45,525 nt of DNA, taken from NCBI GenBank assembly GCA_049968255.1, contig JBMFRB010000012.1, positions 1 to 45,525 on the forward strand, given 5' to 3'. This DNA is from Candidatus Sumerlaeaceae bacterium. GTDB taxonomy: Bacteria; Sumerlaeota; Sumerlaeia; Sumerlaeales; Sumerlaeaceae. The translations under genes and the position numbers were made by a program. The notes below the pieces were generated by a model. That model did not search any database. It was not told the origin of the DNA and was given only the letters and a program-made list of their open reading frames with translations. Position 1 is the first letter of the stretch. The number at the start of each line of letters is the position of its first letter. Shown piece after piece: positions 11,118-40,683 of the stretch.

Positions 11118-11360
11118 GGCCGTCCGTTTTCGGTGCAGGGGGCTGGTCCGCTCCGTCGGCGGCCGCTGGGGCAACAACCGCCTCCCTGGGAGCCGCGCAA
11201 GGAGTGCCAGCCAAGCGAGCGCTAATCGTGCATCCCCGAAGGCAGAGGCACAAGCAACGCATTTCGTTGACGACCAGGCGGCATTCTTTTCTTTACTCTC
11301 GTTGCTCGACACCGCGAAGTGGTGCTCGTCTATCAAGAAAAACTGTTGCGACAGGTCCGC

Positions 11361-12677: not shown

Positions 12678-12740
12678 CGCTCGGGGCTACATCGCCAAGT
12701 TTGATCCGCACACATTCTGATGGTTTACGGGAGTTGAAGC

Positions 12741-14594: not shown

Positions 14595-14780
14595 TGGCCC
14601 GCGTCGCGCTGTGGCAGAGACGGCGGCATTTTGCGAGCAGAAATAACGGAACCGCCCAAGACCAATCCCGCGCGCGCAAAGATAAACGAACCGGGAGCTC
14701 AGAAGACTCTTGCAGACACGTCGCGACCTGAGAACCTTCGTTTAGAAGGACTCCGGCAGGACGATGAGGGCAGCACACGC

Positions 14781-20221: not shown

Positions 20222-20285
20222 GGAACACGTACGAGTAGCGAGATCTCTTCGCGCCGCGGTCAAGGGCGAAACCGTCGGCCGTTGC

Positions 20286-21968
20286 TTAGGCAACCTGATG
20301 ACGCGACTCTTTTCGCCGGACGAGGCGAATGGCGGCCTCGCCCTCGACAGGACATTTGTTTTCGCAGATACCGCAGCCAATGCATCGTTGCGCGATGACC
20401 TGCGGAGCTGGGACTTGCTGATTGCCTGCGCCTTGGCCGCGCCTGCCCTCGCGGCGCATTTCAATGGCCTTCGGCGAGACGGGGCAGACCTCTTCGCACA
20501 CACCGCATTCTTCCCGATCGTTCCAGGCGAGGCAGCGATTGCGATCAACGCGCGCCACCCCGATACGCACGTGATTGCGCTTTGTGCTAACGAGCAAAGG
20601 CCGAAGGGCGGTCGTCGGGCAAACGTGCGAGCACAAAGTGCAACTTGGCTCGCAATAACCAAGGCGCGCCACCACGCGCGGGGTCCAAAGTCCCTCGGGG
20701 CCGGCCTCGAAAAGCGTGGGGTGGATCGCGTTCTGCGGACACGCACGAAAGCACTCGCCACAGCGGATGCACATCGTGAGAAATTGCGGCTCTGGCCGCG
20801 CGCCTGGCGGGCGGAGGAGATATTCATCTTGTGCAATGTCGGTGCCAACAGCGGCGACCGACGTGCGACGCGACGCAGCCATTTTCACCAAGGGAACGGC
20901 AGCGAGTCCAGCGGCCAGCGCCGTGAGCACGCCGCGCCGAGTGAGATCGAGAGGCGCTGCTTCGCTGCGAGATTCCCCAGCTTCGGATTTTTCTGTAAAA
21001 CCGAATTCGACGCTGCGACGCGGGCAGACGTCGGCGCACTCCATGCAGCGTAGGCACTCAGCCGGATCTGAAGTCGCACCATCACCCGATTTGATGGCCT
21101 GCATGCGGCAAGAGTTGCCGCATACATTGCACTCTGTACATTGCGAAACACTCACCCGTCGGCGAAACGGAGCCACACGCGCAAGCAAGCCGTAAAACGC
21201 TCCCAGCGGACACAGGAATTGACACCACCAACGACGATGCAGCCGCGACAACAGCAGTACTCCCAGAAGGATGGCAAGGTGTAGCACTCCTTGATCATAA
21301 ATGTGGCGCGTCGGAGGAAAGAAGGTGTGCTCGATCCACACCCGGACGGGCCGCACGACCGGAGCCATCAGCGTCCACGCTTCGCCGCTGTCGCCCAATA
21401 AGGCAAGCCACCAATGCACCGCAGGATAAACCGCCAGGCTCACCCCGCGCGTGAGGATTGCGAGCGGATCGAACCACCCCGCCACGTTAGCGCCGCCGAG
21501 CGCCACAACGGTGAGGCCCAAAAGCAGGTAGTACTTTGTGCGGTGCGTAATCAGAGGAGGGAGGCGCGGGAAATTTCCTTCGCGACTGGCCTGGTGAGCA
21601 AGGCGACGTTCGATTTTCGCAGGACGAAGCACGCGGCCCGCAGCATCAATGAGCGTACCAAGGGGACAAATCCACCCGCAGAAGACTCGCCCAAATAGAA
21701 GAGCAAGGACAACGAACCCCAGAAACAGCCAGATCGGTTTCTCGATGAGGGTGCGCGACGAGATCACTGTCAGGATCCACGTGAGCGGATTGGCCCAAAA
21801 TATAACGTCGGGGTTGATTGCACTGCGCAGTTGCCAACCGCCGGGCGCAGCCGGCTCGCCATGCCCACGCATCATAAGATAAAGAAAAAACAGCAAAAAG
21901 GCTACCTGTGAGATGCGTCGCCACTGCACGGCACGAAGCGCGCTTTTTTCATGCGACTGATTACCCAT
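20286..21968 (-). CDS. Membrane polyferredoxin, NapH/MauN-like domain fused to a NapG/MauM-like domain
   Basis: Transmembrane helices; FCGWICPLG, WCQFLCPLG; several CxxCxxC...CP clusters; internal LTRRGVL; LRPPGA...CIRCGEC. Confidence 0.88.
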   Translation of the reverse strand: MGNQSHEKSALRAVQWRRISQVAFLLFFLYLMMRGHGEPAAPGGWQLRSAINPDVIFWANPLTWILTVISSRTLIEKPIWLFLGFVVLALLFGRVFCGWICPLGTLIDAAGRVLRPAKIERRLAHQASREGNFPRLPPLITHRTKYYLLLGLTVVALGGANVAGWFDPLAILTRGVSLAVYPAVHWWLALLGDSGEAWTLMAPVVRPVRVWIEHTFFPPTRHIYDQGVLHLAILLGVLLLSRLHRRWWCQFLCPLGAFYGLLARVAPFRRRVSVSQCTECNVCGNSCRMQAIKSGDGATSDPAECLRCMECADVCPRRSVEFGFTEKSEAGESRSEAAPLDLTRRGVLTALAAGLAAVPLVKMAASRRTSVAAVGTDIAQDEYLLRPPGARPEPQFLTMCIRCGECFRACPQNAIHPTLFEAGPEGLWTPRVVARLGYCEPSCTLCSHVCPTTALRPLLVSTKRNHVRIGVARVDRNRCLAWNDREECGVCEEVCPVSPKAIEMRREGRRGQGAGNQQVPAPQVIAQRCIGCGICENKCPVEGEAAIRLVRRKESRHQVA

Positions 21969-25482: not shown

Positions 25483-28374
25483 TCACTGCGCGGAGCGAGC
25501 CTGCACCACCGAAGGCTCTAGATAAAGGCCATGACCCGGGACAGTGCGCAGTATGCGACGCGCCTCCTCCCCCCCGAGCACAGCCGCCAGCCGGCGCACA
25601 ATCGTGGCTTTGTGGGCGAGGATCTGCTGCTGTTCGACTTTGGCGTCGGGCCAAAGTTCGGCATCAAGCTCTTCGTAGGGCACGACGCGTCCCTCGTGCC
25701 GAGCAAGATACGTGAGAAGGCGATAGGGCATCACACTGAGGAAAACCTGAACTTCATTGACGCGCACGACTCCCGGGCTGCGCGGATCCAGCTCAACGCG
25801 AGCTCGCCGCGGCGCTTGCGCCGTCGAATCCGACCCCATCTCAGCAAGTTGCGTTCTGTCGGCAATCACGTCCACCTGGTGTTGGGCGAGAATCCGGCTT
25901 GGCGCCGTGGCGTTTTCGCGCAAGGCAACAACAGGGGAAACTGCGAATGTTGCACTTGTGCTCGCAACGCCCCCACAAAAAACATCTGCTCGGTTGCTCC
26001 CTGGCTGCGCAAGGCCGTCGCGTCCTCCACAACGTTCGGCACCAACCTCCGCTGACTCGGGCGAATGATTGGCCTTGTCGCCACGGCGCCGCGTCTCCCG
26101 CAAAATGGGCACGAGCTGAGCGGGAACAACGCGCCGCAGAACGTCGTCGCTCACGCCGTCCAACGCCGCTGGCAAGTCGAATCCTGCTTGCGCAAGCGCG
26201 ATGAGTGCGGATCGCGGAACCGTTCCGGCAAATGCTCTCGCCAACGCCACTGCACACTCTGGCACTCCAAAACGCAGACGCTCGGCCACCGCCGCCGCGT
26301 TCTCCTGCAGTCCGCCGCCAAGCCCTAACCGCCCCGCTATGGCTCCCATAGCCTCGACCAGCCAAGCGAGGTGGTGAGCCAGCGATTCGATGGTACCACT
26401 CAAAATGCTGAACGCTTCCTCAATGGTGCGTGTGGCGCGCACGCTGATCCATGCCTGTGCGAGAAAGGCTTTTTTCAGGGCGGCGTGATCTGCCGAGTTG
26501 GCACCGCCGCCATGAAGTTGAAATGGAAGACTTACCGGATCCCCGCCATGCTCGCGCCAATAGTCATGATACAAGTGCAAGTACTTGCCCGTGCGTATTT
26601 CCCAAGGCGAAGCGGACAACGGAAATGCTGCCCCTTGGGGGCTGGAGGCGGCTGCCAAGAGATAAGGGAAAGCTTCCGCGGGCGCACGCTCGGCGAACGT
26701 CTCAACATAGCGACGAAGATGGGCCGCCGTCCCTGGCTCGAGTCCGAACGTTGCCGCCACTTCTCCTGTTCCGGTCGGGATATATCGCCACGCCTGCTGC
26801 TCGATGAGCTCATATGCCTCCAACACTTGCACGGCGCTGCGTGTGAGGGTTGCCACCGCCGCGTTGTTCATCACTCGCCATGCGTAGGTTCGAGCGAGAA
26901 ATGCCTCGACGTGTTTGTCATCGGGGCTCATCTTGGCTTCTCCGAGGCCGCCGCCGTGATGCATGACGATTGCATCGAGCACAGCCATCGCCGCCCCGTC
27001 GCTGCCCATGCTTACGGCGAGGGGTTCGACGGGGCGACGCAGCAAAAGGTCAAAGAGCCGATGCGCCTCGCTCTCATCGCGCGCTACAACGATGGAACGG
27101 CCAAATTGCATGGTGCGCCGATAACGACCAGCTCGGCCCCCTTGATTGCGCAGGCGCGAGCGCGACAACGGCACGGCGACCGGATGACGCGCAACTTCGC
27201 CGTGGATCACCATGATCGGTAGGCTCACGACGTTGCGGCAACCGAGATTTACGCCCTGCGCAAGTGTGGACGTGGCCACGAGCACACTGAGTCGGCCCTG
27301 ATCGAATCCCTGCTCGATAGCGCGACGCACCAAGGCCGGAAGGTCCGCATTGTGGAATGCCACGCTGTGGGCCAGCAGCTTGGCCAGAAATGCATGTTGA
27401 GCGCTCTCGTCTGTCAATAAAGCCAGCTCTTCGGTTGCCTCAGGTTCCCAGCTGCTTCGCGGCAAAGCGCGTGCCAGCTGCCCCGCAACTTCACGCGAAA
27501 GCGCTTTTGTTGGAACGAAGACGAGCAATTGCTCGCCACGCTGGGCAACGAGTTCTTGCGCTAGGCGCGTGAGTCCTTCCGCAATTGGTGCGTCGAACAC
27601 GGAGCAATTCTTGGTCCGCGGCAGGGTGAGTCCGGTTGCGGGCTCTGCTACATCAAGGAGCTGCTCTGTCGCCTCGCGACGCGAATTCCATTCACGATAG
27701 CGGAAAATGCCCGTCGAAAGATCGAGGATCCCTTCGCGCAACTCAACAGGGCGATCGTTCCACACAAGCGCCTGGGCCCCGAGCCAGGAAGCCAACCGCT
27801 CGTGATCATCCAACACCGCGCTCATGGCAACCACTTGTGGCGAGCGTGCCTGTGCAAGAAATTTTGTTAGCAAAAGATCAGCCGTTCGGCCCCGCTCGCG
27901 GTCGCCAAGAATCTGCAACTCATCAGCCACTACGCAGCTGATAAGCCCCGCAAGCTCTGGCGACGCTGCAAGCAAAGCCCGCAGTTTCTCGTACACCGCA
28001 ACGGCAAGATGGAACTGTCCCCTCGCCAACACCTCATCATCTTGGCGCTGTTCTGCCGTCGAAAGGCACACGCGCAGCGAAAGCGGCCCGTAGGCCGAGT
28101 GAAGGTACGTAGCCAGTTCCTCCGCCAAAGCCTTTGTGGGAACGAGGAACACGGCGCGCCCACCTCGCTCGATATGATGGAGCGCTGCCAGCTCGCCGAG
28201 AAAAGTTTTGCCCGAGGAGGTGGGCGCAAACACCGCAAGCGATTCGCCGCGCAGCAGCCCCGTGTGGGCTACGGCATGTGCCTGTAGCGGCAAAAGCTCA
28301 GCATCCCGGAATCGCTTCCAGTTGGCAATGGTGCGATCGGAAAAACCGTGAGCTACGAGATGATCGAGCCTCAT
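25483..28374 (-). CDS. Ski2/Hel308-like SF2 helicase with C-terminal OmpR/PhoB-type winged-helix domain
   Basis: Q-motif LLPLQ, Walker A APTSSGKT, VPTKALA, DELQ, MSA, RPVEL, FHNADL, ATSTLAQGVNL, QGGRAGR. The C-terminus (LLTYLARHEGRVVPYEEL...LW...ILRTVPGHGLYL) fits Trans_reg_C. GAGGT RBS before ATG 28374. Confidence 0.85.
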   Translation of the reverse strand: MRLDHLVAHGFSDRTIANWKRFRDAELLPLQAHAVAHTGLLRGESLAVFAPTSSGKTFLGELAALHHIERGGRAVFLVPTKALAEELATYLHSAYGPLSLRVCLSTAEQRQDDEVLARGQFHLAVAVYEKLRALLAASPELAGLISCVVADELQILGDRERGRTADLLLTKFLAQARSPQVVAMSAVLDDHERLASWLGAQALVWNDRPVELREGILDLSTGIFRYREWNSRREATEQLLDVAEPATGLTLPRTKNCSVFDAPIAEGLTRLAQELVAQRGEQLLVFVPTKALSREVAGQLARALPRSSWEPEATEELALLTDESAQHAFLAKLLAHSVAFHNADLPALVRRAIEQGFDQGRLSVLVATSTLAQGVNLGCRNVVSLPIMVIHGEVARHPVAVPLSRSRLRNQGGRAGRYRRTMQFGRSIVVARDESEAHRLFDLLLRRPVEPLAVSMGSDGAAMAVLDAIVMHHGGGLGEAKMSPDDKHVEAFLARTYAWRVMNNAAVATLTRSAVQVLEAYELIEQQAWRYIPTGTGEVAATFGLEPGTAAHLRRYVETFAERAPAEAFPYLLAAASSPQGAAFPLSASPWEIRTGKYLHLYHDYWREHGGDPVSLPFQLHGGGANSADHAALKKAFLAQAWISVRATRTIEEAFSILSGTIESLAHHLAWLVEAMGAIAGRLGLGGGLQENAAAVAERLRFGVPECAVALARAFAGTVPRSALIALAQAGFDLPAALDGVSDDVLRRVVPAQLVPILRETRRRGDKANHSPESAEVGAERCGGRDGLAQPGSNRADVFCGGVASTSATFAVSPVVALRENATAPSRILAQHQVDVIADRTQLAEMGSDSTAQAPRRARVELDPRSPGVVRVNEVQVFLSVMPYRLLTYLARHEGRVVPYEELDAELWPDAKVEQQQILAHKATIVRRLAAVLGGEEARRILRTVPGHGLYLEPSVVQARSAQ

Positions 28375-29075
28375 GGCAAAACCTCGCGGAGGAGATATGC
28401 AGCGGTTAGCAAACTGGCCAGGTTCGTCCACGCAATCCGACCGCTGTCACGAGCACCGCGTAGAGCACTCGCGCGTGGCAAAAAAGACAAGCGAACAAGG
28501 GGAGGATGAAAACTGCAAGAGTGTGCACCCTGTTTCTCCCAAGCTCTCTCCAGTCGTTGACCGGAGCGCTTCCATTCACGGCTTCTTGCAGTGCCCTGCT
28601 CCCTGCTCAACATGGGGCCTTCTCTCCCACGTAGTTGTCGCTCGTGTGTAGCGAAGTTTGCGCGAGCTTTATCCGCCCTGTCCTGGCCTCATCCGACTCA
28701 TGAGCTATGCCTATGAGTCGCTACAACCGCTCGGACGGATTTTGTTGTGTGATAGCACACAACCCATGACAGGGTTGGTCACCCCCACCCTTTCTCGGTT
28801 CGACCACACGGTCGGAGCTCGGCTGCAAACGCGATCTTCGCCGATTCATGGGCACGTTGTGGCAGAGGGCGATGGAAAACTTTCGCTTTGGCCAACGACG
28901 CACGTGGAGCTCGGCCGGCATCTCTTGAATGAGCGCCACTGCGACGGGTAAAAGCGAGTGATACGCCCACAATGTCCGCGTTGCTATTCCGAGGGACCAG
29001 GGGATGCCACGGTGCAGTGTCATTTCGCGGGAACAAAGGCGGCGAGGTTCAGTTTGCAGAAAGGACGCGAGAGAG

Positions 29076-30106: not shown

Positions 30107-32293
30107 ATGAAGCCCACAGGCTGGCGCGCGTTCCTCATCACTTTGGCTGCATTGATTCTTAGCGCTCATCCGACTCAACGTCTCTCTGCAGACCAAGGCA
30201 AGGGAGCGTCTCCACGATCGGCCAAACCCTTGCGTGCGAAATCGACACAGAAAACCACGGCTGAGACGAAACGGGGGGAAACCACAGGAACGCCGATTGC
30301 CCTTCGCCAGAAGGTTCAAGAGACGACAAAGGGCGTCGAGATCAACGTGGGTCCCGCAGCAGCATCGGCGATCGCTCAGGAACTAGAGAAAGCCGATACC
30401 AAGACCACAAAGCCTGCGGCAGCGCTCGTAGTCACTGTGCCGCTAGGAGGCGAACTTTCCGAGCGCGGGGGTGGACTTCGCCTGCTCGGGCCACGCAAGC
30501 GCTCGCTGAAGGAGACGCTCGAACTCTTTGTGCGATTGCGCGACGATGCCGCGGTGAGCACCGTCGTGCTCGAGCTCTCCGCCTTGGGCGTCGGTACGGC
30601 CACAGTCCAGGAATTACGCCAGGGAGTCGACGAACTGCGGCGCGCCGGTAAGCACACAGTGGCCGTGCTCAACGACGACTCGCAGTCGGGCTACCTGCTG
30701 GCTGTGGCGTGCGATCAAATCGTCATGCCTCCGTCCAATGCCCTCATGCTTGTGGGCGCAAAGGTCGATGGGTATTTTTTTAGACAGTTACTCGACAAAC
30801 TTGGCGCCCGAGCTGTGGTTGTCCACATTGGCCAATATAAATCTTACGGAGAGATGTTTACTGAGGACGATTTCACGTCGCCCGCCCGCGAGAACATGCG
30901 CGCCCTCGTGGACGACGCCTACCGCCAGCTCGTCGAAAGCATTGCCGCCGGACGCCACATGACGACGGCCACGATTGAGGCATTGGTAGATCGCGGTCCC
31001 CTGACTGCCCGCGAAGCGCTCGAGGCGCGGCTCGTGGATCAGTTAGCTTATCGCGAAGAGATTGCGGAAGCCTACCGCCGCCAAGGGGCCAAAGTTGTGG
31101 CCGCCGATAATTACGGTGTGGACAAGCGCATCAAACCCGAGGAAATGAACCTCCTCGCCCTGTTCACCGCCCTGAGCAAGGGAGCAACCGCCTCGCGAGA
31201 AAGCAAGTTCCCCCAGGTGGCCGTCGTCTACGCCGTCGGACCTATCGTGCCTGGCTCCTCTGATAACCTCGACTTGAGCAACGCGGATGAGATTGCAGCC
31301 GATGATTATATGAAAATCCTCGACGACATTGAGAAAGACGCCAGCATTAAAGGTGTTATCCTGCGCGTCAACAGTCCGGGCGGTTCAGCGTTCGCCTCGG
31401 ATGTTCTTTTCCGACGCATCGTCGAGCTCGGTAAAAAGAAACCCGTGATCGCCTCGATGGGGGACGTGGCCGCCTCAGGCGGCTACTACCTCGCCATGGC
31501 TGCGAGCAAGATCATCGCCGACCCCATGACCGTGACCGGTTCGATTGGCGTCGTGGGCGGCAAAATTGACCTTGCCGGCACCTACGACAAGCTGGGTATC
31601 CATAAAACCACCATAGCGCGTGGGCGGTTCGCGAATCTTTTCTCCGAAACAGGTGGCTTTTCGCCGGCCGAACGCGCCGTCATCGAGAAACTCATGCGCC
31701 AAACCTATGACGAATTCGTGGCAAAGGCGGCGCGCCAACGCGCAATGACAACCGCGGCGCTCGAAAGCCTCGCTCAGGGAAAGGTCTACACCGGCGCCCA
31801 AGCGCGGGCCGTCGGCCTAGTGGACGAACTCGGTGGTTTTAGCCGAGCTGTGCTTGAAATGAAACACCAACTTGGCCTCCAACCCGAAGACAAGGTCGCC
31901 CTCGTGGCCTATCCCAAGGAGCTTACCCTTCTTGACGTTCTGCAAAAGGCCATGGGAATGAACGCGCAATTAGCGGAGCTCGGGGCAACGGCCGGAGTGG
32001 CGCACGCGCCCCAGAGCGCACCGCCACCCCTGGAGAGAGGGACGGCGGGCATTGTCCCAGGGAACTTCGCGGCACTTCGGCTTGCTCGACATGGCCTGAC
32101 TGCATTCACTGGTCATGATCAGGGGATCCCGGTGAACCTCGTTCCAATTGCGCTTGAACTGGGGAAAGGCACCGGCGTCCTGGCCTCGCTGCACGGTCTC
32201 GCTCAGCCTATGCGCCTCGCGCTTTCATTCGCGAACATCATCCACGCTGAGAAAATTGCCTGCCTCATGCCCTTTGTGCTCAATGTCGAGTAG
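30107..32293 (+). CDS. sppA: Signal peptide peptidase SppA (protease IV, long two-domain S49 type)
   Basis: N-terminal signal/anchor, GQYKS, LRVNSPGGS, SMGDVAASGGYY, TGSIGV, GLVDELG. Confidence 0.92.
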   Translation: MKPTGWRAFLITLAALILSAHPTQRLSADQGKGASPRSAKPLRAKSTQKTTAETKRGETTGTPIALRQKVQETTKGVEINVGPAAASAIAQELEKADTKTTKPAAALVVTVPLGGELSERGGGLRLLGPRKRSLKETLELFVRLRDDAAVSTVVLELSALGVGTATVQELRQGVDELRRAGKHTVAVLNDDSQSGYLLAVACDQIVMPPSNALMLVGAKVDGYFFRQLLDKLGARAVVVHIGQYKSYGEMFTEDDFTSPARENMRALVDDAYRQLVESIAAGRHMTTATIEALVDRGPLTAREALEARLVDQLAYREEIAEAYRRQGAKVVAADNYGVDKRIKPEEMNLLALFTALSKGATASRESKFPQVAVVYAVGPIVPGSSDNLDLSNADEIAADDYMKILDDIEKDASIKGVILRVNSPGGSAFASDVLFRRIVELGKKKPVIASMGDVAASGGYYLAMAASKIIADPMTVTGSIGVVGGKIDLAGTYDKLGIHKTTIARGRFANLFSETGGFSPAERAVIEKLMRQTYDEFVAKAARQRAMTTAALESLAQGKVYTGAQARAVGLVDELGGFSRAVLEMKHQLGLQPEDKVALVAYPKELTLLDVLQKAMGMNAQLAELGATAGVAHAPQSAPPPLERGTAGIVPGNFAALRLARHGLTAFTGHDQGIPVNLVPIALELGKGTGVLASLHGLAQPMRLALSFANIIHAEKIACLMPFVLNVE

Positions 32294-33209
32294 CGGGTCA
32301 TGGTTCGCAGGCTTTTTCCCGTGTGCTAGCCCCTGGTACCCCCTAGGCGATGTTCTGGGCCGGGATCCGGAGACTGTGGAAATTCAGGGAGCAGTAAACA
32401 TTAGCGGGAGTTGCAATAAATCCGTCTCGGACTTGAGCAGGCAGGCAAGTCTCGAGAAGCTTGGGCTAGGCCCCACGCGCGATTTCCCCGCCTGACTTAT
32501 CGATCTCATGACCGGGTTATTCCACCGGCCGCTGTCTATGCCCGTTCTGTGCCAGAGACGTGGCGGGGTTGAGCCTCATGCTCATCTTTCTGCGGCCTTG
32601 CTTAGCGCCCGCACCGCAACAGCGGCGCGAGCTAGCACCAGCAGCTTTTCTGCGCCGGCTCCATCTCAGCTCAAACAGGCGCACGCGTCAGTCGCGGACT
32701 GACTCCCGCCCTGAGCTGCTCGAGGCAAAATTCCTTATTCCCGGGGTTTGAGGATGTGGTTCGCCAGGTGTCGCCTGACCTGCCTTATTGGCCCAAGCAG
32801 CCGATGACGTCATCGACGAGCTAGTGCGGACGGCGGCGTTGCCCCCCACCAATTTTATGTTCTCGGAAATAGCTCTAAGGGGTTCTGTGGGAATTGCCTT
32901 TTGCAAGGTGTTTCGCCTAGTCTGTTGCTGTCGCTATGGAGACAGACCAAAGTCGGATATTTCCATGCTCTCCTGGGGACACCGGGAAGTCCCTTCGCAG
33001 CGGTCCGAATATCACGCCCATGCGAACTGCGGGCGATGGTGTCCTATGGGAATCCTGAGAGCTTGGGCGCACTGCAAATACCCGATGCAGGTCTTTCGGG
33101 CAGGAGCGGCTCCTGGGGGTGTCTCGGCTGACGCTTTGCATGAGGACTGATCGTGCGAGCAAGGTTCATTGCCGACACACTGCCAAAACGAAAGCGAGGT
33201 GAACAGATC

Positions 33210-34715
33210 ATGTCGGATCGCATTTATCCGATTGAACACGAATTTCAGCGTGCGACAAGCGCCGCTTGGCTGTCTTCGGCCGACCTAGCCTACCAGGCAA
33301 TCGTGGCCAACGAGAGCTTTGCCCGGGGCAGCGAGGGCATCTATGGGGTTTTCGCGGAGCTCGAACGCCGAGATGCTCACTTGTTTGCGACTCTTCAGAC
33401 ACGCAAGAATGCCCTCCTCGGGCAGCCGTGGCAACTCGTGTGGCCAGAGGATAGCCGCGGTGCCAATGCCCCCCAGCGCAGCCTGATCGTCCGGCGCGTG
33501 GAGTCCGTGCTCAATGCCGTCCCGGATTTCACGGGAGCCCTCTACCACCTTCTGGACGCCTTGAGTAAGGGTTATGCCGTGCTCGAGGTTGTGTGGAAAG
33601 TGGATCCGCATACGGGTCACGTCGCGATTGCGAAACTTGCTCCGCGCCAGGCATGGGAATTTGCTTTTGACACGCGCGGCGGCCTCTTTCAGCTCCACCA
33701 GGGCTGGACAGCCGGTCCCGAGCGTCCCACGCAGGGTCAAGCACCTTCGCCAGAACTCATCCCGCGGCCAGGCGAAATGTCGCTGCGCGCTAGACGTTGC
33801 AAGCGCATGCCGGAAAGAAAATTTATCGTCCTCGTTTCTCAACCAGAACCGGCTGCGGCCTACGGTACGCCGTTAGCGGCGCGGGTGTACTGGTATTCGT
33901 GGTTCAAAAGGCAGGCGCTCGACGATTGGACACTTTACAATTCACGCTACGGGGCGCCGACGCCATTGGCGCGCTACGCAGCCACGGCAGCACCCGAGGA
34001 AATCGAGCGGCTGGCGGAAGCGTTGGAGCGGCTACGTGAACACGCCGGCATCATTGTGCCAGAAAGCGTGAGCGTCGAGTTACTCGAATCGCGCCGCACG
34101 GCGACGGGGGCCAGCCCCTTCCGCGAGCTCGCGGACTGGTGCAATGATGAGATTTCAAAGGTTGTCCTCGGTCAAACGCTCACGACGAGTGAGGGGCGAC
34201 GCAGTGGAAGCCTTGCGCTGGGCCGTGTGCACGAAGCCGTGCGCCACGATTACCTGGCAGCCGACGCTCGAGCGCTGGCCGAGGTGCTTTCACGCCAGCT
34301 CGTGCGCTGGATTGTGGACTTCAACTTTGGAACCGAGTCGCCCGCACCTCTCTTTGCCTTCGACGTAGAGGAACCGTTCGATAGCCAGGCGGAGTTAGAA
34401 GTGGACCGTGGGCTTGTGCAGCTGGGTGTGCCGCTGGGTCTTGACTACTTCTATCGTAAATACCGGCGGCCAATCCCGTCAGCATCGACCCGCAAGCTAA
34501 AATACGACGATGCGAACTTTTATCAGTACCATCTCCAGTATGGCGTGTTGACGATCAACGAGGTCCGCGAGGCGCTTGGTTTACCGCGCGTGCCATGGGG
34601 TGACCGTCCACCTGTGAAACAATCTCCAAATGAGTCGGCCGAGGCTGACGCCACCGCGCAAAAAGAGCCGAACTTGGATCCTCTTGAGGGCCATCGCGAC
34701 ACACTGCCCCGATGA
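33210..34715 (+). CDS. Mu gp29-like portal protein (DUF935)
   Basis: ERRDAHLFATLQTRK, LLDALSKGYAVLEVVW, YG.P, WCNDEISKVVLGQTLTT, SLALGRVHEAVR. GAGGT RBS before ATG 33210. Confidence 0.88.
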   Translation: MSDRIYPIEHEFQRATSAAWLSSADLAYQAIVANESFARGSEGIYGVFAELERRDAHLFATLQTRKNALLGQPWQLVWPEDSRGANAPQRSLIVRRVESVLNAVPDFTGALYHLLDALSKGYAVLEVVWKVDPHTGHVAIAKLAPRQAWEFAFDTRGGLFQLHQGWTAGPERPTQGQAPSPELIPRPGEMSLRARRCKRMPERKFIVLVSQPEPAAAYGTPLAARVYWYSWFKRQALDDWTLYNSRYGAPTPLARYAATAAPEEIERLAEALERLREHAGIIVPESVSVELLESRRTATGASPFRELADWCNDEISKVVLGQTLTTSEGRRSGSLALGRVHEAVRHDYLAADARALAEVLSRQLVRWIVDFNFGTESPAPLFAFDVEEPFDSQAELEVDRGLVQLGVPLGLDYFYRKYRRPIPSASTRKLKYDDANFYQYHLQYGVLTINEVREALGLPRVPWGDRPPVKQSPNESAEADATAQKEPNLDPLEGHRDTLPR

Positions 34716-34923
34716 GCCCTGACCGGCTCACGAGGAAGGAGTGGCAAAGCTGAGACTCTCGGCAACCAGTGGCCAACTGGCCTGCGCCCCGAGCTTCTCT
34801 CGGATAGGGCTGCGCGGAAGCCACGTGGAGTGGAAAGCGCGCACAGGGAGCGTGTCCATTCCCGGGGGCTTCAACACACAAGTTTTGGTTTTCTGTGAAA
34901 GGAGGTGTCCTTGCGACAAGATA

Positions 34924-34941
34924 ATAGAACAAATGTTCTAT
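34924..34941. promoter_or_regulatory. Perfect inverted repeat ATAGAAC-AAAT-GTTCTAT, matching the GAAC-N4-GTTC LexA (DinR/Cheo) box
   Basis: 7-bp arms with a 4-nt spacer, ending 88 bp before the protease ATG. Overlaps a -10-like GATAAT (34920-34925). Confidence 0.7.
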
Positions 34942-35028
34942 CACGTGGACTCATGGCTGCACTCATGTCAGTGAACTAGGGACCACTAGCCGCACACAAA
35001 GGCAAACTTTGGAAAGGAGAGAATCCCA

Positions 35029-36027
35029 ATGACAGACAAAAGGCCGTCGTTGGCCACACAGTCCAAGGAGAAAGACCTTGCCCCAGTCGCCTTCTCCCAG
35101 GAGGGCTCCGCAAATGTCGCCGAGTCTGACGTCTCGCCCGGATCGCTGGAAATGGAAGTCTTTCGCACGGGCGACTATGGGCCTAAGGGCGTGTGGACTG
35201 AAGAGGATCTGAAACAACTCGCGCGCGACTATTCGCCCGATGTTCTGGAAGCGCCGCTGACCTTCGATCACGCCCGCAGGGGCCCAGCATTCGGGTGGGT
35301 GGAGACCTTACGGCACGAGGGCGATCGCCTTGTCGCTCGCATCGCCGGCATCCCCGAGATCGTGCATAAACTCGTTCGCATGGGCGCCTACAAGAAGCGC
35401 AGCGTAGAAATTCTTCGTTGCTTGCCTGCAACCGGGCGTCCTTATATCCGCGCCGTTTCGCTTCTCGGGGCAGCAAGTCCTGCCGTGCCAGGTCTGCGCG
35501 AAATCGTTTTCACTGACCATCAGGGCGAAGTCATCGCCTTCGACGACGATGAGGAAATCACCGCGCTTCGCGTTATGGTGGGGAAATTGCGTGCGGAGAT
35601 CGGGAGGTTGCGCCACGAGCAGCGTCGCGGCGATGCGCGCGAATTGGTGACCCGTGTGCGTGCACGCGGCATTGCGCTGACCCAACGCGAGGCCGAGCTC
35701 ATCGAGTCATTTTGCCTGGCGGTGGAGCCATCGAAGGCGCTTGTGCGTTTCAGCGATGACGAATTCTTACCCCTCGCGTGGCTGAATGAATTCCTGCTCG
35801 CGCGGGCTCCCTCTGTTCCGGAAGGCGAAGTGGCTTCGCCGGCGCCGACGGAGATTAGCGCTCCGAAAACTGCCGGGCCGCCGCCTCCGCAGGCGGACCC
35901 CGTGAGTGTGGCCCTTCACCAGCGTGCCCTTGCTTTGCAGGAGAGCGACGCACGCCTCACTTATGCCGCGGCGCTGAGCGCCGCCGCCCGCGCCATGGGT
36001 ACGGCGCATCGTAGATTTTCCCATTAA
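35029..36027 (+). CDS. Mu I-like prohead protease/scaffold protein
   Basis: EVFRTG, APLTFDH...PAFGWV, YKKRSVE, VSLLGAASPAVPGL, then a coiled-coil and a helical C-terminal tail. AAGGAG RBS. Confidence 0.82.
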   Translation: MTDKRPSLATQSKEKDLAPVAFSQEGSANVAESDVSPGSLEMEVFRTGDYGPKGVWTEEDLKQLARDYSPDVLEAPLTFDHARRGPAFGWVETLRHEGDRLVARIAGIPEIVHKLVRMGAYKKRSVEILRCLPATGRPYIRAVSLLGAASPAVPGLREIVFTDHQGEVIAFDDDEEITALRVMVGKLRAEIGRLRHEQRRGDARELVTRVRARGIALTQREAELIESFCLAVEPSKALVRFSDDEFLPLAWLNEFLLARAPSVPEGEVASPAPTEISAPKTAGPPPPQADPVSVALHQRALALQESDARLTYAAALSAAARAMGTAHRRFSH

Positions 36028-36052
36028 CCTTCGGCGAAAGGAGACACGCATT

Positions 36053-36442
36053 ATGCCAATTCACGTCCTCGACAAAGCTTACCGCGTGGCCACGACCAAC
36101 GGCGTGGCAGCCAACCGCGTGGTGGTGGCCGGACCACTCAGCGGAGAATGCAGTCTCCCGGCGAGTGAGAACGCCCCGAACCTGTTAGGGGTCACGGTCC
36201 ACGCTCAGCCCGAGGCTGGCCGAATGGTCACCGTGCGCAAGGTGGGCATCGCGGAGGTCGCGGCCGCCGGGGCCATCCCACTCGGCGCGCCGGTCATCGC
36301 AGCTGACGCAACCGGAAAGGTCAAAGCGGCCACCGGCGCGGCCGGCACCAAGGTCAACGTCCTGGGCTTCGCCGAAACGGCCGCCATTCAGAATGGTGAT
36401 CTGATCGAGGTCTTTCTCTCGATTCACCAACGCACGCTCTGA
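36053..36442 (+). CDS. Capsid decoration/cement protein (DUF2190-like)
   Basis: 129 aa, Ala/Gly/Val-rich; GIAEVAAAGAIPLGAPVIAADATGK and GFAETAAIQNGDLIEVFL. Lies between protease and capsid genes. AAGGAG RBS. Confidence 0.8.
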   Translation: MPIHVLDKAYRVATTNGVAANRVVVAGPLSGECSLPASENAPNLLGVTVHAQPEAGRMVTVRKVGIAEVAAAGAIPLGAPVIAADATGKVKAATGAAGTKVNVLGFAETAAIQNGDLIEVFLSIHQRTL

Positions 36443-36492
36443 CGTGACGAAGCGCTAAACATACCCCCCAAGAATCAGGAAAGGAGACCGCA

Positions 36493-37440
36493 ATGCCTGA
36501 TGTGAGCCAAGTGCACATTGACACTGCGCTGACGGGTGTCAGCGTGGCTTACCGCAACAATGATTACATCGCCGATGAGGTGGCGCCACCCATTGGCGTG
36601 CGCAAACAGAGCGACCGCTATTTCGTCTACGATCCGGAACGCGAGTTCCTGCGGGCCACGCCCGACGCTCGTGCCCCCGGTGCTGAAGCCAACGAAGTGG
36701 ATTTCCAGCTCAGCAGCGACAGCTACTTCTGCGAAGATCACGCGCTGGAGGCCGCGATTCCCGACGAAGAGCGCGAAAATGCCGACCCGCCGCTTCAGCC
36801 CGACATTGACCGCACGGAGATGCTGGCCGACAAAATTGCGCTCAACCGCGAAATCGGCCTAGAAAACCTCCTGCGCACGAGCGCGTCCATCCAGGGCACA
36901 AGCCTTGATCCCCTGGACTGGTGGTCGAATCCCGACAGCGACCCACTTGCCCAGATTCGCGAGGCTCGTCACGTTGTCCTAAGCAATGTCCAGCGACGCC
37001 CCAATGTGGCCATCTTGCCCTACGCCATTTTCGATGCTCTGCGCAACCACCCCAAGGTGGTGGAGCGCATCAAATACACCACGGCCGGAGTCATTGGTGA
37101 GCAGCTCCTGGCGCAACTGCTCGATCTCGACCGAGTTTTGGTGCCCCGTGCATTCAAGAATGTGGCGCGGCGGGGACAGGCGCCGTCCTGTGTTCCGGTG
37201 TGGGGCAACACGGCATGGCTGGCCTACGTGCCTCCGCGGCCGGCTCTCAAGCAGATCATTGGCGTGGCGACCTTTGTGTGGAGCGGCCCCGTCGGTTCGG
37301 AGAACGGATGGCTCGTCGAGCGCTGGCGTGAGCCCCGGCGAAAGGCTGACATGATCCGCGTGCAGCGCTACTACGACCACAAGCTCATCGCCCCCGCGGC
37401 CATCTACAGGATTGACAACGTGATCGAGGTCGCTGGCTAA
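36493..37440 (+). CDS. Major capsid protein (HK97 fold, Mu-like/phage_cap_E-like head)
   Basis: 315 aa; HIDTALTGVSVAYRNNDYIADEVAP, WSNPDSDPL, RPN...ALRNHPKV. Canonical position after protease and decoration genes. AAGGAG RBS. Confidence 0.85.
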   Translation: MPDVSQVHIDTALTGVSVAYRNNDYIADEVAPPIGVRKQSDRYFVYDPEREFLRATPDARAPGAEANEVDFQLSSDSYFCEDHALEAAIPDEERENADPPLQPDIDRTEMLADKIALNREIGLENLLRTSASIQGTSLDPLDWWSNPDSDPLAQIREARHVVLSNVQRRPNVAILPYAIFDALRNHPKVVERIKYTTAGVIGEQLLAQLLDLDRVLVPRAFKNVARRGQAPSCVPVWGNTAWLAYVPPRPALKQIIGVATFVWSGPVGSENGWLVERWREPRRKADMIRVQRYYDHKLIAPAAIYRIDNVIEVAG

Positions 37441-37456
37441 CCTCAACCCTCTCTGT

Positions 37457-37500
37457 CGTAGCGGGCAGGTCGTGGCCCTCACTGCCCGCTGCGCTCTTTC
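37457..37500 (+). terminator. Putative intrinsic terminator after the capsid gene
   Basis: Stem CGTAGCGGGCAG (37457-37468) pairs with CTGCCCGCTGCG (37482-37493, one G-U pair), followed by CTCTTTC (weak U-tract). Confidence 0.5.
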
Positions 37501-37532
37501 ACAAACCAAACTGACGAAAGGACATAAAGCTC

Positions 37533-37985
37533 ATGAAAGGTCCAACGAGCGACACGAAAAGATATCTCAACGCTGCGGCCCGATCGCGTGCCAAATCGTC
37601 TGGGGTGGGACTTGTCGCCGCAGCGGCTGAACTGGCTTCGCAAATTGACGAACTGGCCGATGAGTTCCATCCCCAGACGGCGGCTCCGGCCCTTGCACGC
37701 GCAGTCTTTCTCTTCTTGCAGGCGCTCTTGCCAGAAGCCCCTCGTGAGTGCAGGCAAGCCGTGGCCGAACTCATCGTGCTCGAAATCGTGCGCGCTGCAC
37801 TAAGCCAGAGCGGCCAGCCAGGCGAGGCGAAACCGCCCAGAGAAAAGGGTGCCGAGCTCAAAGACGGCGAGTTCAACGGGGCCGACGCCAGACCTACGGT
37901 CCTACCATTCCCATCTGAAAACAAAGCTGAGGGAGTGCAGGAAGCCGGATTGGCCAGAATTCTCGACGCCGTGGTTCGCAAGTGA
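37533..37985 (+). CDS. Hypothetical protein, predicted helical
   Basis: 150-aa ORF with AAAGGA upstream; no recognisable motif. Confidence 0.5.
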   Translation: MKGPTSDTKRYLNAAARSRAKSSGVGLVAAAAELASQIDELADEFHPQTAAPALARAVFLFLQALLPEAPRECRQAVAELIVLEIVRAALSQSGQPGEAKPPREKGAELKDGEFNGADARPTVLPFPSENKAEGVQEAGLARILDAVVRK

Positions 37986-38171
37986 AAGGTTTCGCCCCCT
38001 CTCATTGGACTCTCTGCCGCCGGCGCGAGTCCCGTTTGGCCCTGTTTAGACTAGGGTTTTCTTACAGTTTCGCCCGTGGCGAGGCATTCCCAAGGCGACA
38101 GGAATGTGAATTTTCTTCTCCACGAAAAACAGAACCACTGAGAGACCATTTCTCCGTGAAGGTGTTGGATC

Positions 38172-38972
38172 ATGAAATGTGAAAAACCCCATCCCCGTCA
38201 TTCCTTCTGGGACGCTAGTTCTGCATCCCAGATCAAGTGCATAACAAAGGATGTTTTTCTTGCAGCGCTTACGTTTACCCTCTTTGCCTGCGGCGAGACA
38301 AGGAAGGAAAAGGTTTGGACCCGTTTGCCGGATGAAGCTCCGAGCGGCGAGATGCAGTTGTCGGCACCCATGCCTGCTTCTGCGGTGGCTGGCCAAATGC
38401 CCCCAGCGTCCGGAGGCTTTGCGCCGCGCATGAGCGGCGGGACCGGTATGCCGCCCACGGCCGACCGCTCACGCGTGATTGCCACAACCGGCTCGCTCGT
38501 CGCCAGTGGTGTCGGTTTCATGATTCCCGATGGCTGGGTTCCCGAAACGCCAAAGACCCCAATGCGGCTGGCTCAATACCGCCTTCCAGGGTCGGCGGGC
38601 GACGCCGAGCTATCGGTTTTTGCTTTCGGTCCGGGGCAGGGGGGCACACCAAAGGCAAATATCGAACGCTGGGTGGCGCAATTCCGTGCGGATGAGGCGA
38701 CTACCGGAAGTCAGCCGGCCGAAGTCGCTGAGCTGGAAACGGGCGGCTTGCGCCTCTATCTTGTGAAAACGTGGGGAACCTACACTCCCACCGCCATGGG
38801 AATGGGGGGAGACAGCACAGAACCCTTGCCAAATTATGCGCTGTTTGGCGTCGTGGTAGAAGGGGGACCCGAAGGCTTGCTTTTTGTCAAGGTTACAGGG
38901 CCCAAGCCAACCCTTGATGCGCAGGCCAAGCAGTTGGAATCGTTCGTCCGGAGCGTGAAATTGATCAAATAA
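38172..38972 (+). CDS. Putative lipoprotein of unknown function
   Basis: Hydrophobic stretch ending in lipobox LFAC, Pro/Met/Gly-rich linker, then W...PMRLAQY...GG...ANIERWVAQF...FVKVTGP. Confidence 0.75.
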   Translation: MKCEKPHPRHSFWDASSASQIKCITKDVFLAALTFTLFACGETRKEKVWTRLPDEAPSGEMQLSAPMPASAVAGQMPPASGGFAPRMSGGTGMPPTADRSRVIATTGSLVASGVGFMIPDGWVPETPKTPMRLAQYRLPGSAGDAELSVFAFGPGQGGTPKANIERWVAQFRADEATTGSQPAEVAELETGGLRLYLVKTWGTYTPTAMGMGGDSTEPLPNYALFGVVVEGGPEGLLFVKVTGPKPTLDAQAKQLESFVRSVKLIK

Positions 38973-39145
38973 GCTTGGCAGCCGATCACCTTAGACCGTG
39001 GAGCTGCCCAAATGGTCTTTCTGCCCGTGTCGTTCGCGCTGCCGTTGTGGCGTGCCGGCGGGGCGCTCGGCGCGTTGCCTTGCGGAAGGCAGGCTTCACG
39101 CAGACTTGGAACCCAACGCGGATTGGAGAGAAGGAGGTCAGGAGG

Positions 39146-39451
39146 ATGTCGCGCGAACGCAACGAGCGCTGGCAGGGGGAAGTGACCAATGAATTGCTAC
39201 ACATTTCAGAGCGCCTGGCCGGACTCGAACGCCGGCTCGAAGGGCTGGAGAACCACATCTGTCAGCTTTTTAACCAACATCTTGATTATCACACCGCCAA
39301 CGAGCACCTGTGGGGACTTCTGCGCTGGGCGCAGCGTTATCCTCTTCGCTTTGCCGTGCTTGTGGCCGGCGCCCTCCTATGGTTGCATGCCCCCGATGTT
39401 TCTCTCGTGCCTGCGCTTGTTCGCGACGTCCTCCTGCGCCTCGTGCGCTAA
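39146..39451 (+). CDS. Small coiled-coil plus C-terminal transmembrane protein (holin/XhlA-like architecture)
   Basis: 101 aa after AAGGAGGTCAGGAGG. Heptad-like ISERLAGLERRLEGLE, then hydrophobic FAVLVAGALLWL and a basic tail. Confidence 0.65.
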   Translation: MSRERNERWQGEVTNELLHISERLAGLERRLEGLENHICQLFNQHLDYHTANEHLWGLLRWAQRYPLRFAVLVAGALLWLHAPDVSLVPALVRDVLLRLVR

Positions 39452-39492
39452 GGCGCCGGAGAGTGACGAGGGCACCGGCGAGCCGGCCCAGG

Positions 39493-40683
39493 CTAGGCGC
39501 GGTGCTTTGGGTCAAGCGCATCGCGCAGGCCATCGCCTAGAAAATTGAAGGCACACACAGTGACGATGATAAAGGACGCCGGCGCGAACAGTAGCCAGGG
39601 ATAGTTCTTGATCGTCGTGAGGCTTTGCGCCTGCTCGAGCATGATCCCCCAGCTCACTTGGGGCTCCTGGATTCCTACACCCAGGTAGCTTAGAGCCACC
39701 TCGCCAAGAATGTAGCCAGGAATGGCAATCGTCGCGGCCACGATCACGTAGCTAAACGTGTTCGGGAGAATATGCAGTGCGATGATGCGCAGAGTGGAGG
39801 CCCCCATAGCCCGCGCCGCCGTCACGAAATCCTGTTCCTTGATTGCCAGCACCATACCGCGCACCACCCGCGCCTGCCCCGCCCATCCGATAAATGCTAA
39901 TATGATCACGATCATAACATACATCTGTGTGGAAGTCAGTTGGGCGCCTCCCAGCCCCAGCACGCCCCGGGTTTGGAAGTATGCACGCAAGGCGATGATG
40001 AGATAAAGCGTGGGAATTGAAAGCAGAAACTCGACGCCACGCATAATGATCCGGTCCCACCACCCACCAAAATAGCCCGCCAAAGCTCCCATGAACATGC
40101 CGATGGCCAGCGAAATGGTAATGCCCACGAGGCCAATCGAGAGCGAGATTTTCCCGCCCTCGATGCAACGGCTAAAGACGTCCTTCCCCACGCTGTCGGT
40201 GCCGAGCAAGTGGATGCGCCCCGGCGGGTCCACGCCAAAGAGCCGCTTCTTCATCGGGATGACCCACCACAGCTTGTAAGGGGTGCCGTCCACGAAAAAT
40301 CGGATCGGATATTTTTTCGAAAGATCATATTTCCACGTCTGGCGCACCGGATCAACTATCACCATCCCGTAAACGAACGGCCGCAGATGAAACTTGCCCT
40401 CCTCATCCACAAAGCGCGGGAGCATCGGCGGATGGTTTGTCATGGCGTAATTGCGCTCGGCAGGATCATAGGGCGAGACAAAGCTTCCGAAGATGGTAAT
40501 GAGGTAGAGCACGGCCAACACCGCAGCGGCGATCATCGCCGTTCGGTTGCGCTGCAGGCGTCGCCATGCCAGCCGTCCTGGCGAATAGCTTACGCTGGTC
40601 TCGTCGGTTTCCGTCGGTAAAGGGGTTGCCCCACCTTCCGAAAGGCGCGACGGCGGAACAATGTTCTTTTCCGGCTCAGTCAT
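39493..40683 (-). CDS. Peptide/nickel ABC transporter permease, DppC/OppC type
   Basis: HLLGTDSVGKDVFSR, EAA-like FVTAARAMGAS, HILPN, FNFLGDGLRDALDP. Confidence 0.93.
   Translation of the reverse strand: MTEPEKNIVPPSRLSEGGATPLPTETDETSVSYSPGRLAWRRLQRNRTAMIAAAVLAVLYLITIFGSFVSPYDPAERNYAMTNHPPMLPRFVDEEGKFHLRPFVYGMVIVDPVRQTWKYDLSKKYPIRFFVDGTPYKLWWVIPMKKRLFGVDPPGRIHLLGTDSVGKDVFSRCIEGGKISLSIGLVGITISLAIGMFMGALAGYFGGWWDRIIMRGVEFLLSIPTLYLIIALRAYFQTRGVLGLGGAQLTSTQMYVMIVIILAFIGWAGQARVVRGMVLAIKEQDFVTAARAMGASTLRIIALHILPNTFSYVIVAATIAIPGYILGEVALSYLGVGIQEPQVSWGIMLEQAQSLTTIKNYPWLLFAPASFIIVTVCAFNFLGDGLRDALDPKHRA

Follow-up and report, generated by a model that had tools for sequence, protein, structure and literature searches.

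Two kinds of domesticated phage heads are known: gene transfer agents (GTAs), which keep the terminase, and encapsulins, which have lost the portal, the protease and the scaffold. Capsid-forming phage-inducible chromosomal islands (cf-PICI satellites) also have a capsid, a portal and a protease of their own without other virion parts; they carry an integrase together with replication and packaging genes, and are mobile. The closest described case to the one reported here is that of the reduced Rhodobacter capsulatus GTA (RcGTA) clusters of Rickettsiales and Holosporaceae endosymbionts, which are described as having kept the capsid-portal part under purifying selection and lost the tail genes, and for which, their function being unknown, a non-DNA cargo has been proposed; that paper counts the terminase among the head-related domains analysed (George et al. 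2022, PMC9254644). A study of the virus-encapsulin border describes mini-genomes with integrases that have neither portal nor terminase (2026, PMC13669383). Here, we have analysed a stretch of 45,525 nucleotides (the window) of contig JBMFRB010000012.1 from a Candidatus Sumerlaeaceae bacterium (assembly GCA_049968255.1), in which positions 33210-37440 hold four phage head genes. These genes are intact, lie on the same (+) strand with host genes on both sides and encode, from 5' to 3', a Mu-type portal, a gpI-type protease/scaffold, a cement protein (DUF2190) and an HK97-fold major capsid protein (MCP), according to open reading frame (ORF) calling and to Pfam and PHROG searches. We think it rather probable that this module is a domesticated capsid system without terminase, cut here to a tailless head, whose product is not filled by a dedicated terminase. 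Sequence comparisons place its origin in a Mu-like (B3/D3112-type) phage and indicate vertical inheritance throughout the class Sumerlaeia.

When compared with the known systems, the module stands between GTAs and encapsulins, as it combines a full head-assembly set with the lack of a motor and with a class-wide, housekeeping-like conservation in a barely studied phylum. Like the GTAs (RcGTA, BaGTA, VSH-1, Dd1 and VTA), it is host-maintained, vertically inherited and under purifying selection, but no packaging enzyme was found in its genome and no delivery apparatus in the window's genus. With the encapsulins it has in common the HK97 fold, a shell owned by the cell and the lack of terminase and tail, and 6x8m is among its structural matches (E 1.9e-5). 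However, its portal, protease/scaffold and cement genes, which encapsulins do not have, are co-conserved with the MCP, no protein of the module matched the encapsulin Pfam family, and the MCP is far closer to the phage-related protein 3bjq than to any encapsulin. Unlike the satellites, it has an integrase-like gene in only one of the 75 flanks searched and none in the window, and its phylogeny is like that of RpoB. The reduced RcGTA clusters, as described (PMC9254644), belong to the RcGTA (HK97-like) lineage of Alphaproteobacteria, whereas the Sumerlaeota module has an independent, Mu-like origin, belongs to a free-living hot-spring phylum and comes without any terminase that we could find. 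Set against the mini-genomes in the account given of them in PMC13669383, it is the reverse case, the portal being kept and mobility being absent. Our literature search found no description of a Sumerlaeota capsid system, and the words "phage" and "capsid" have 0 occurrences in the main text, supplements aside, of the main comparative paper on Sumerlaeota (PMC8092238).

The portal reached 294 bits with PF06074, for which the cut-off is 23.9, and it is 76% identical to its orthologue in G002, a genome of the same genus, and 41-53% identical to those of other genera. The protease had no Pfam match and its profile gave 0 matches against the PDB; in an 18-row alignment that includes the phage JBD67 and a Poribacteria orthologue, H81 and S125, which presumably form the catalytic pair, are nearly invariant and also present in JBD67, and the C-terminal motif LSYAxAL is conserved. 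The MCP scored 22.3 bits with the Pfam family Phage_cap_E, slightly below the cut-off of 22.9, and its AlphaFold2 model (pTM 0.71) has the HK97 fold. The best PDB match of this model was 3bjq (Foldseek E 1.2e-16, TM 0.65), followed by phage capsids and encapsulins, and the MCP sequence profile likewise matches 3bjq (E 2.6e-29). As ribosome-binding sites (RBS), AAGGAG precedes the starts of the protease, cement and MCP genes and GAGGTG the portal ATG. These results bear out a first, sequence-only reading of the window, which had noticed four uninterrupted ORFs in head-gene order with AAGGAG in front of the last three, and which had named sppA, a hypothetical gene, a lipoprotein and ABC permeases as neighbours, as Pfam and the ESM Atlas now also indicate.

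The heads of Mu-like phages of the B3/D3112 type (Pseudomonas JBD67 and JBD30) are made of the same families in the same order, with gp36 following in the Sumerlaeia relatives as well. The differences are that the identity to such phages is only 28-32%, that the module is fixed and vertically inherited, and that much of the phage is missing. There are no small and large terminase genes before the portal and no Mu F (gp30) and G between portal and protease, where the module has a gap of only 313 bases; the tail tube, tape measure, transposase, repressor and lysis genes are absent too. By tblastn of 26 JBD67 proteins against the window's own genome, only the four head proteins have a counterpart, a match of the MuB-like ATPase on contig C8 aside, and none was obtained for the JBD67 terminase, Mu F, G, tail, transposase and lysis proteins. 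Furthermore, the Mu F family PF04233 gave nothing in G000, G002, G006 and G036, and no tail sheath was found in the own genome. A Pfam scan of 31 ORFs of the window revealed, head genes aside, nothing phage-like and no integrase or transposase, and the window showed neither a small terminase, a repressor nor a primase, nor any att-like repeat. There is no compositional break either, the GC content being 0.59-0.62 across the module and 0.56-0.65 in the rest of the window, and codon usage is host-like, portal, protease and MCP having a cosine of 0.92-0.96 and 11 host genes one of 0.91-0.97. On both counts, the lack of other phage genes and the even composition, the sequence-only reading was right.

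The window comprises the first 45525 bases of a contig of 49871, so the head module lies well inside the contig; the genome (3.12 Mb in 31 contigs) is 95.75% complete and its assembly has gaps of N. An MCP profile built from 16 orthologues and run on a collection of species-representative genomes yielded 62 loci, 51 of them labelled Sumerlaeota, Sumerlaeia, Sumerlaeales, Sumerlaeaceae or candidate division BRC1, five without a taxon label and six from other phyla (Chitinophagaceae, Poribacteria and Chloroflexota, at 33-40% identity). Whole-genome searches detected the MCP in 32 of 41 relatives (for high-quality genomes, in 25 of 32) and, at the level of the phylum, in 62 of 75 genomes, 35 of the 43 high-quality ones and 15 of 18 families, with 0 of 2 in genomes outside the class Sumerlaeia. 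Nearly all of the genomes with a match have a single full-length one, and no match contains an internal stop; the exceptions are G016, G054 and G076, in which the MCP is in pieces, and G013 and G062, with a second and far weaker match. Portal_Mu was present in 33 of the 41 relatives, and 35 of them have the MCP or the portal. By tblastn the portal was found in 44 of the 62 loci, most of the misses being contig cuts. The module also sits inside two closed chromosomes, G006 and G021.

The identity of the MCP to that of the window decreases with taxonomic distance, from 91% and 86% within the genus to 55-73% within the family and 45-60% in other families of the class. A maximum-likelihood MCP tree (31 Sumerlaeota rows and 3 outgroups) was compared with an RpoB tree of 34 genomes, the comparison covering the 27 genomes with a full MCP and a usable RpoB; four genomes with a partial or split RpoB (G009, G011, G018 and G024) were in the MCP tree only, seven without MCP match in the RpoB tree only, and G016, whose MCP is split, in neither. 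The MCP tree recovers the families f1 (11 rows, support 93), f10, f2, f8 and f9+f14 (99-100) and f7 (92), and in the RpoB tree the clade of the window is nested in the same order, ((G000,G002),G001),G006. Both trees have 13 of 24 splits in common, and their patristic distances correlate with a Pearson r of 0.62, a value reached by 0 of 2000 Mantel permutations. This agreement is support for vertical descent rather than proof of it.

The rate of the MCP is 1.05 times that of RpoB. Nonsynonymous distances (dN) to G002 were 0.058 for the MCP, 0.103 for the cement protein, 0.165 for the portal and 0.322 for the protease/scaffold; that of the MCP is as low as those of the neighbouring permeases OppC (0.078) and OppB (0.041). 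Saturation of synonymous sites is reached even within the genus, pS being 0.62-0.79. In the clade that has kept only the head, the ratio of MCP to RpoB distances is 0.85, the range being 0.32-3.13 in six other groups, and the MCP shows no sign of relaxed constraint there. The frameshifts, stops and relaxed selection that mark a decaying prophage were not found here or in the relatives. The reading frames are open across the class and evolve at the rate of a core gene, which rules out a neutral remnant. All these data argue that the module is domesticated and selected for by the host, being neither a decaying nor a recent prophage.

In 50,697 phage records, all matches to the MCP (194 records) and to the portal (402 records) were less than 60% identical, the best at 28-32% among the matches listed. 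Of 80 IMG/VR loci retained, two (L137 and L138) have 59% MCP identity on 4-6 kb, and L137 continues into the genes that we call c7 and c9 below; these two, although filed as viral, are fragments of the same host module, and they illustrate how its genes make virus-detection tools classify host DNA as viral. The other 78 loci, many of them on contigs of ~50 kb, have MCPs 34-43% identical and share no other gene of the module at a tblastn E of 1e-6, save one protease match in L204. The single flank with an integrase-like gene has a tyrosine-recombinase-like one (L048), and the own genome has two such genes, on other contigs. The suggestion of the sequence-only reading that the host selects for a domesticated head has therefore held: the module is in most genomes of the phylum, with an RpoB-congruent tree, low dN and nearest phages at most 43% identical, and neither absence from relatives, relaxed selection, grouping with active phages nor misassembly, the findings it had named beforehand as speaking against it, was observed.

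The portal is kept here without a recognisable packaging motor, as no terminase was found either in the own genome or in the closed genome G006. The own genome contained no Terminase_6N, Terminase_6C, TerL_ATPase, Terminase_3 or GpA_ATPase, and the only match to phrog_2 had an E of 1.6e-5 (ORF C1:480544-481635). This ORF was considered as a hidden terminase and rejected, since its motifs read as those of a PhoH-like P-loop protein, the ORF itself not having been profile-scanned; weak phrog_2 matches of this kind (E 1e-4 to 1e-7) occur in many relatives. Across the 41 relatives, phrog_2 matched at E <1e-15 in six (G039, G021, G038, G010, G013 and G030), TerL_ATPase was present in two, Terminase_3 in 0 and Terminase_6N in three. 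Combining these four profiles, a credible terminase was absent from 27 of the 32 relatives that bear the MCP, G006 among them. Where terminases are present, they lie away from the module, ~2.2 Mb off in the closed genome G021. In G039, the TerL gene (contig C573, 18440-19486) is on another contig than the module and adjoins a second, ordinary Mu-type portal (Portal_Mu, 19966-20955). Another genome, G013, has a piece of an ordinary Mu-like prophage, with a second portal and an MCP 27% identical, beside the conserved module (C26:109411-114827). From these prophage pieces in G013 and G039 it follows that Mu-like phages infect the class. No small terminase or other ATPase conserved beside the module was found in the clustered loci.

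As a positive control, the same search detected a phrog_2 terminase in all three Poribacteria genomes that have a sister module (MCP 36-39% identical), with E values from 1.6e-47 to 2.2e-40. In one of them (L085) the terminase (5853-7268) is directly upstream of the portal, and in the genome of L084 it is ~15 kb away on the other strand. A tblastn search with the Poribacteria terminase gave no match below E 1, whether in the 74 related loci, in the window or in the own genome. In these Poribacteria (L083-L085), genes for a head-tail adaptor and for a major tail protein come after the head module; the loci may be prophages or another, terminase-bearing domesticated form.

What surrounds the head genes in other families points to a larger ancestral system. 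All ORFs from the window and the 62 loci (63 sources) were grouped into clusters; many loci are cut by contig ends, so the following counts are lower bounds. The core genes are present nearly wherever the contigs reach far enough, the MCP in 63 sources, the cement protein in 56, the protease in 54 and the portal in 47. Directly 3' of the MCP, c6 is present in 41 of the 63 sources and corresponds to Mu gp36 (PF07030 in 12 of 14 members scanned); accordingly, PF07030 directly follows the MCP in G003 and G036, and it gave nothing in G000, G002 and G006. Then comes c7 (30 sources), which is distal-tail-like, its profile weakly matching PDB 8rk3 chain U (E 0.009), and c9 (27 sources, ~725-1250 aa), which is hub-like, its profile weakly matching the 8rk3 chain "Tip attachment protein J" (E 0.032); these weak PDB matches were kept as leads, and so were the nearest ESM Atlas clusters of c9, viral hypothetical proteins at 0.87-0.90. 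Entry 8rk3 belongs to a paper on the Mu-like-headed siphophage JBD30, and its chain of 567 residues is consistent with the distal tail protein that the paper describes (PMC11445458). Two adjoining genes of the module thus weakly match two chains of one JBD30 baseplate entry. Further 3' are c12 (15 sources), fibre-like with weak tail-fibre PHROG matches, and c13 (12 sources), a small membrane protein. Two c12 genes carry additional parts, a C-terminal Phage_cement_2-like domain (E 5e-6) in L045:13320-14954 and a pectinesterase-like part (E 3e-11) in L035:16859-19216.

This full form, in which the MCP is followed by the gp36 adaptor, the distal-tail-like, hub-like and fibre-like genes and the small membrane protein, is that of most other families, and its genes are packed with no space for a tube or tape-measure gene (for example L040:10979-17049). 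The gene content 3' of the MCP therefore indicates an ancestral element made of a head, an adaptor and a tail-tip set, already without terminase. The window's family has gp36, the lipoprotein and c13 after the MCP (L029, L030 and L043), and c7, c9 and c12 are gone: the c9 profile, run on 13 genomes of the family, yielded no more than two weak and partial matches, neither of them in the own genome, where tblastn with every member of c7, c9 and c12 was negative too. The window's genus and G006 have lost gp36 as well. Gene content thus speaks for a stepwise reduction, in which the family lost the middle three genes and the genus also gp36.

The proteins that the cell maintains under selection are precisely those by which a Mu-type procapsid is built and matured. 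By analogy with phage heads, the portal would nucleate a procapsid of the HK97-fold MCP around the protease/scaffold, the protease would then digest the scaffold and clear the interior, and the cement protein would lock or stabilise the shell. The ancestral form of the class, with gp36 adaptor, distal-tail-like, hub-like and fibre proteins, would be a short-tailed particle, and the window's genus would make a tailless, portal-bearing capsid, either a protein shell or compartment or a released particle. Since no motor is encoded, the product is most likely not filled by a dedicated terminase. The capsid seems to be of use to the cell in a manner so far undescribed. Gene content, vertical inheritance, constraint and the negative searches for terminase and tail genes are results of the analysis, and assembly, the lack of DNA and any function are inferred. 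A further proposition, which we put forward as a tentative one and with less than even confidence, is that the Sumerlaeia capsid with its portal never packages DNA: from its origin on, the class would have retained a phage head that now works as a cellular compartment for proteins or as a particle carrying them, reduced in the window to the portal, protease/scaffold, cement and shell proteins. If so, this DNA-free capsid would be a living intermediate between tailed-phage procapsids and encapsulins, its portal being reused as an assembly nucleator or a gated pore.

Several points weigh against a capsid system that works without terminase. The portal is the docking site of the terminase in all tailed phages, and a continued passage of DNA through it would more readily account for its strong conservation here. 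The missing terminase is the negative result of profile searches in genomes that are mostly 80-97% complete metagenome-assembled genomes, and a highly divergent or non-homologous motor would escape them. A search for RNA data sets that cover the locus found none. As for descent, 11 of the 24 splits are not common to the MCP and RpoB trees, deep nodes disagreeing or being unresolved; the Mantel figure is overstated because related genomes are not independent, and a true dN/dS is not obtainable because dS is saturated. The system is also dispensable, as six of the 41 relatives have neither MCP nor portal (G005, G008, G015, which is 72% complete, G026, G037 and G038). Moreover, in at least three Sumerlaeota loci (L032, L070 and L071), with at least 9.9 kb of upstream sequence, the portal does not adjoin the other genes; in family f8 it lies on another contig than protease, cement and MCP (G019) or was not found (G025), so the module can be split.

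One alternative is a GTA-like particle, in which host DNA would be packaged by an unrecognised motor and delivered by the short tail or, in the window's genus, by lysis and uptake. The portal is indeed kept under constraint in 33 of the 41 relatives, most families retain adaptor, hub-like and fibre-like genes fit for cell binding, and vertical inheritance with purifying selection is the signature of GTAs, for which head-only reduced clusters have been described in endosymbionts (PMC9254644). However, the five terminase Pfam families and phrog_2 were negative in the own genome and no terminase was found in 27 of 32 MCP-bearing relatives, whereas the same search does find the cognate one in Poribacteria; besides, the module has no conserved small terminase or other ATPase next to it, and the window's genus lacks adaptor and tail-tip genes. 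We consider such a particle unlikely. The sequence-only reading had favoured a GTA-like system whose terminase and tail genes would be dispersed over other loci. The data do not support this, since the genome-wide search finds none and the closed genome G006 is equally blank; the retained portal, which it took as a sign of DNA packaging, occurs here without a recognisable motor. A fixed decoy or satellite-like element, in which host procapsids would intercept an infecting Mu-like phage by binding its terminase-DNA complex, so that the infection aborts or transducing particles are made, would need the portal and neither terminase nor tail. It would explain why the portal stands without terminase and why the head has stayed constrained although the tail was lost; satellites that form capsids of their own are known, and ordinary Mu-like prophages in the class, such as that in G039, show that helpers exist. 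On the other side, genes of defence systems and satellites usually have a patchy distribution, move and evolve fast, whereas this module is nearly always a single full-length match as slow as RpoB, with a phylogeny that agrees with RpoB, an integrase-like gene in that one flank of 75 and, in the window, no small terminase, repressor, primase or att-like repeat; this makes the decoy an even less likely option than the GTA.

That the module is an inert remnant of an old prophage, surviving by chance or by hitch-hiking, would account for most phage genes being missing and for its loss in six of 41 relatives, but the four frames are intact, the matches in relatives have no internal stop, and the low MCP dN with saturated synonymous sites goes along with class-wide retention at the RpoB rate, so we regard it as very improbable. 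Still more remote is an artefact of assembly or binning that joined a viral contig to host DNA. The assembly does have 31 contigs with N gaps, and short low-depth contigs (26 pieces from one DNA run) fail to bridge the junctions, being uninformative on the assembly; yet host genes are on both sides within one contig, G002 has the same downstream synteny, the module lies inside the closed chromosomes G006 and G021, and codon usage is host-like. A domesticated capsid system without terminase thus remains the explanation that we prefer. If particles are made, it would be relevant to the question of how a capsid that carries a genome turns into a compartment of the cell. The study of mini-genomes, so far as it describes them, handles that question for portal-less cases only (PMC13669383). 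The passage from the short-tailed form to adaptor only and to head only provides a natural series for asking what a head alone is selected for, and, for expression and imaging, the four genes offer a shell kit that is compact and probably thermostable. Table 1 gives the head genes and the features around them.

Table 1. Head genes of the module and neighbouring features in the window
Feature	Position	Strand	Evidence or remark
Portal, Mu type, 501 aa	33210..34715 (ORF 33153-34715, ATG 33210)	+	Portal_Mu PF06074 E 1.6e-87; phrog_113 E 6.5e-88
Prohead protease fused to scaffold-like C-terminal part (Mu gpI type), 332 aa	35029..36027	+	phrog_976 "head maturation protease" E 1.1e-38, residues 38-180
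Cement/decoration protein (DUF2190, Phage_cement_2), 129 aa	36053..36442	+	PF09956 E 7e-8, 33.2 bits vs cut-off 24; phrog_673 E 4.4e-13
HK97-fold major capsid protein (MCP), 315 aa	36493..37440	+	phrog_1005 "major head protein" E 1.1e-75
Hypothetical protein, 150 aa, at the gp36 (DUF1320) position of other genera	37533..37985	+	No Pfam or PHROG match
Lipoprotein, widespread bacterial family, PsbP/DcrB-like	38172..38972	+	ESM Atlas nearest clusters
c13, 101 aa, long helix, C-terminal hydrophobic helix; putative accessory partner at module 3' end	39146..39451	+	Strong RBS (GGAGG) before ATG 39146
Non-coding stretch between sppA and portal, upstream module boundary and synteny break	32294..33209		916 bases, unusually long

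Three genes 3' of the MCP are possible companions of the head. The 150-aa protein was considered as a diverged gp36 and rejected, hhalign against the gp36 profile A6 giving a probability of 0.3%; its homologues were found only in G002 and G001, with a dN of ~0.5, and it is a putative member of the system. The nearest ESM Atlas clusters of the lipoprotein are "Lipoprotein family protein" at 0.97 (Acidobacteriota and Myxococcota) and DcrB/PsbP at 0.88-0.89. This gene is syntenic 3' of the MCP in five sources and in G006, and in the window's family it occupies the position that tail-tip-like genes have in other families; it is probably an inserted host gene and an uncertain member of the system. 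The third gene, c13, was found in 11 of the 41 relatives, all of them MCP-bearing, and on the same contig as the MCP in 10 of the 11; just 40 homologues were found, all without a name. An alignment (A5) revealed the invariant motif HxxYHxxNEHRWG (H57, Y60, H61, E65, H66, W68 and G69), and the AlphaFold2 model (mean pLDDT 88.7, helix 7-63) had no match among the viral folds of BFVD with E up to 0.001. With its His-rich motif preceding a hydrophobic helix, c13 may bind a metal at the membrane, and it could have a role in anchoring to the membrane or in release. Among the neighbours (the 150-aa protein and the lipoprotein), no cargo family was recognised, no search for a targeting peptide having been made.

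On its left side the module borders on SppA (Peptidase_S49, E 1.4e-74), and on its right side the 150-aa protein and the lipoprotein are followed by OppC/OppB-type permeases. A terminator-like hairpin (32293-32308) lies directly 3' of sppA. An Rfam search of 32000-39600 gave 0 matches at E up to 1, and a promoter and terminator scan gave 0 promoter-like sites and six terminator-like sites, with 8.6 expected by shuffling, hence nothing usable. Gene remnants were searched in two intergenic stretches, by blastn against related loci and by tblastx against 74 loci and the own genome, with no match. The downstream genes of the window are also found in G002, but sppA is not, and the G002 flank upstream of the portal is colinear with the own contig C3:78489-84898 up to ~450 bases before the portal. 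The stretch 32294-33209 thus coincides with a rearrangement breakpoint relative to G002 and, since the upstream flanks differ, the module begins at the portal gene. Between families, too, the flanks of the module vary.

Some other features of the window and of related loci were also observed. The window has no tRNA gene. About 18 kb upstream of the module (11319-15716) there are genes for histidyl-tRNA synthetase (HisRS), aspartyl-tRNA synthetase and an N6/N4 DNA methylase, and on the Poribacteria chromosome L084 (2915-6116) a HisRS-like ORF and a DNA methyltransferase are directly upstream of the related portal, which may be a coincidence. Finally, positions 25483-28431 of the - strand encode a 982-aa DEAD/Helicase_C protein with a C-terminal Trans_reg_C (OmpR-type DNA-binding) domain, an unusual fusion.

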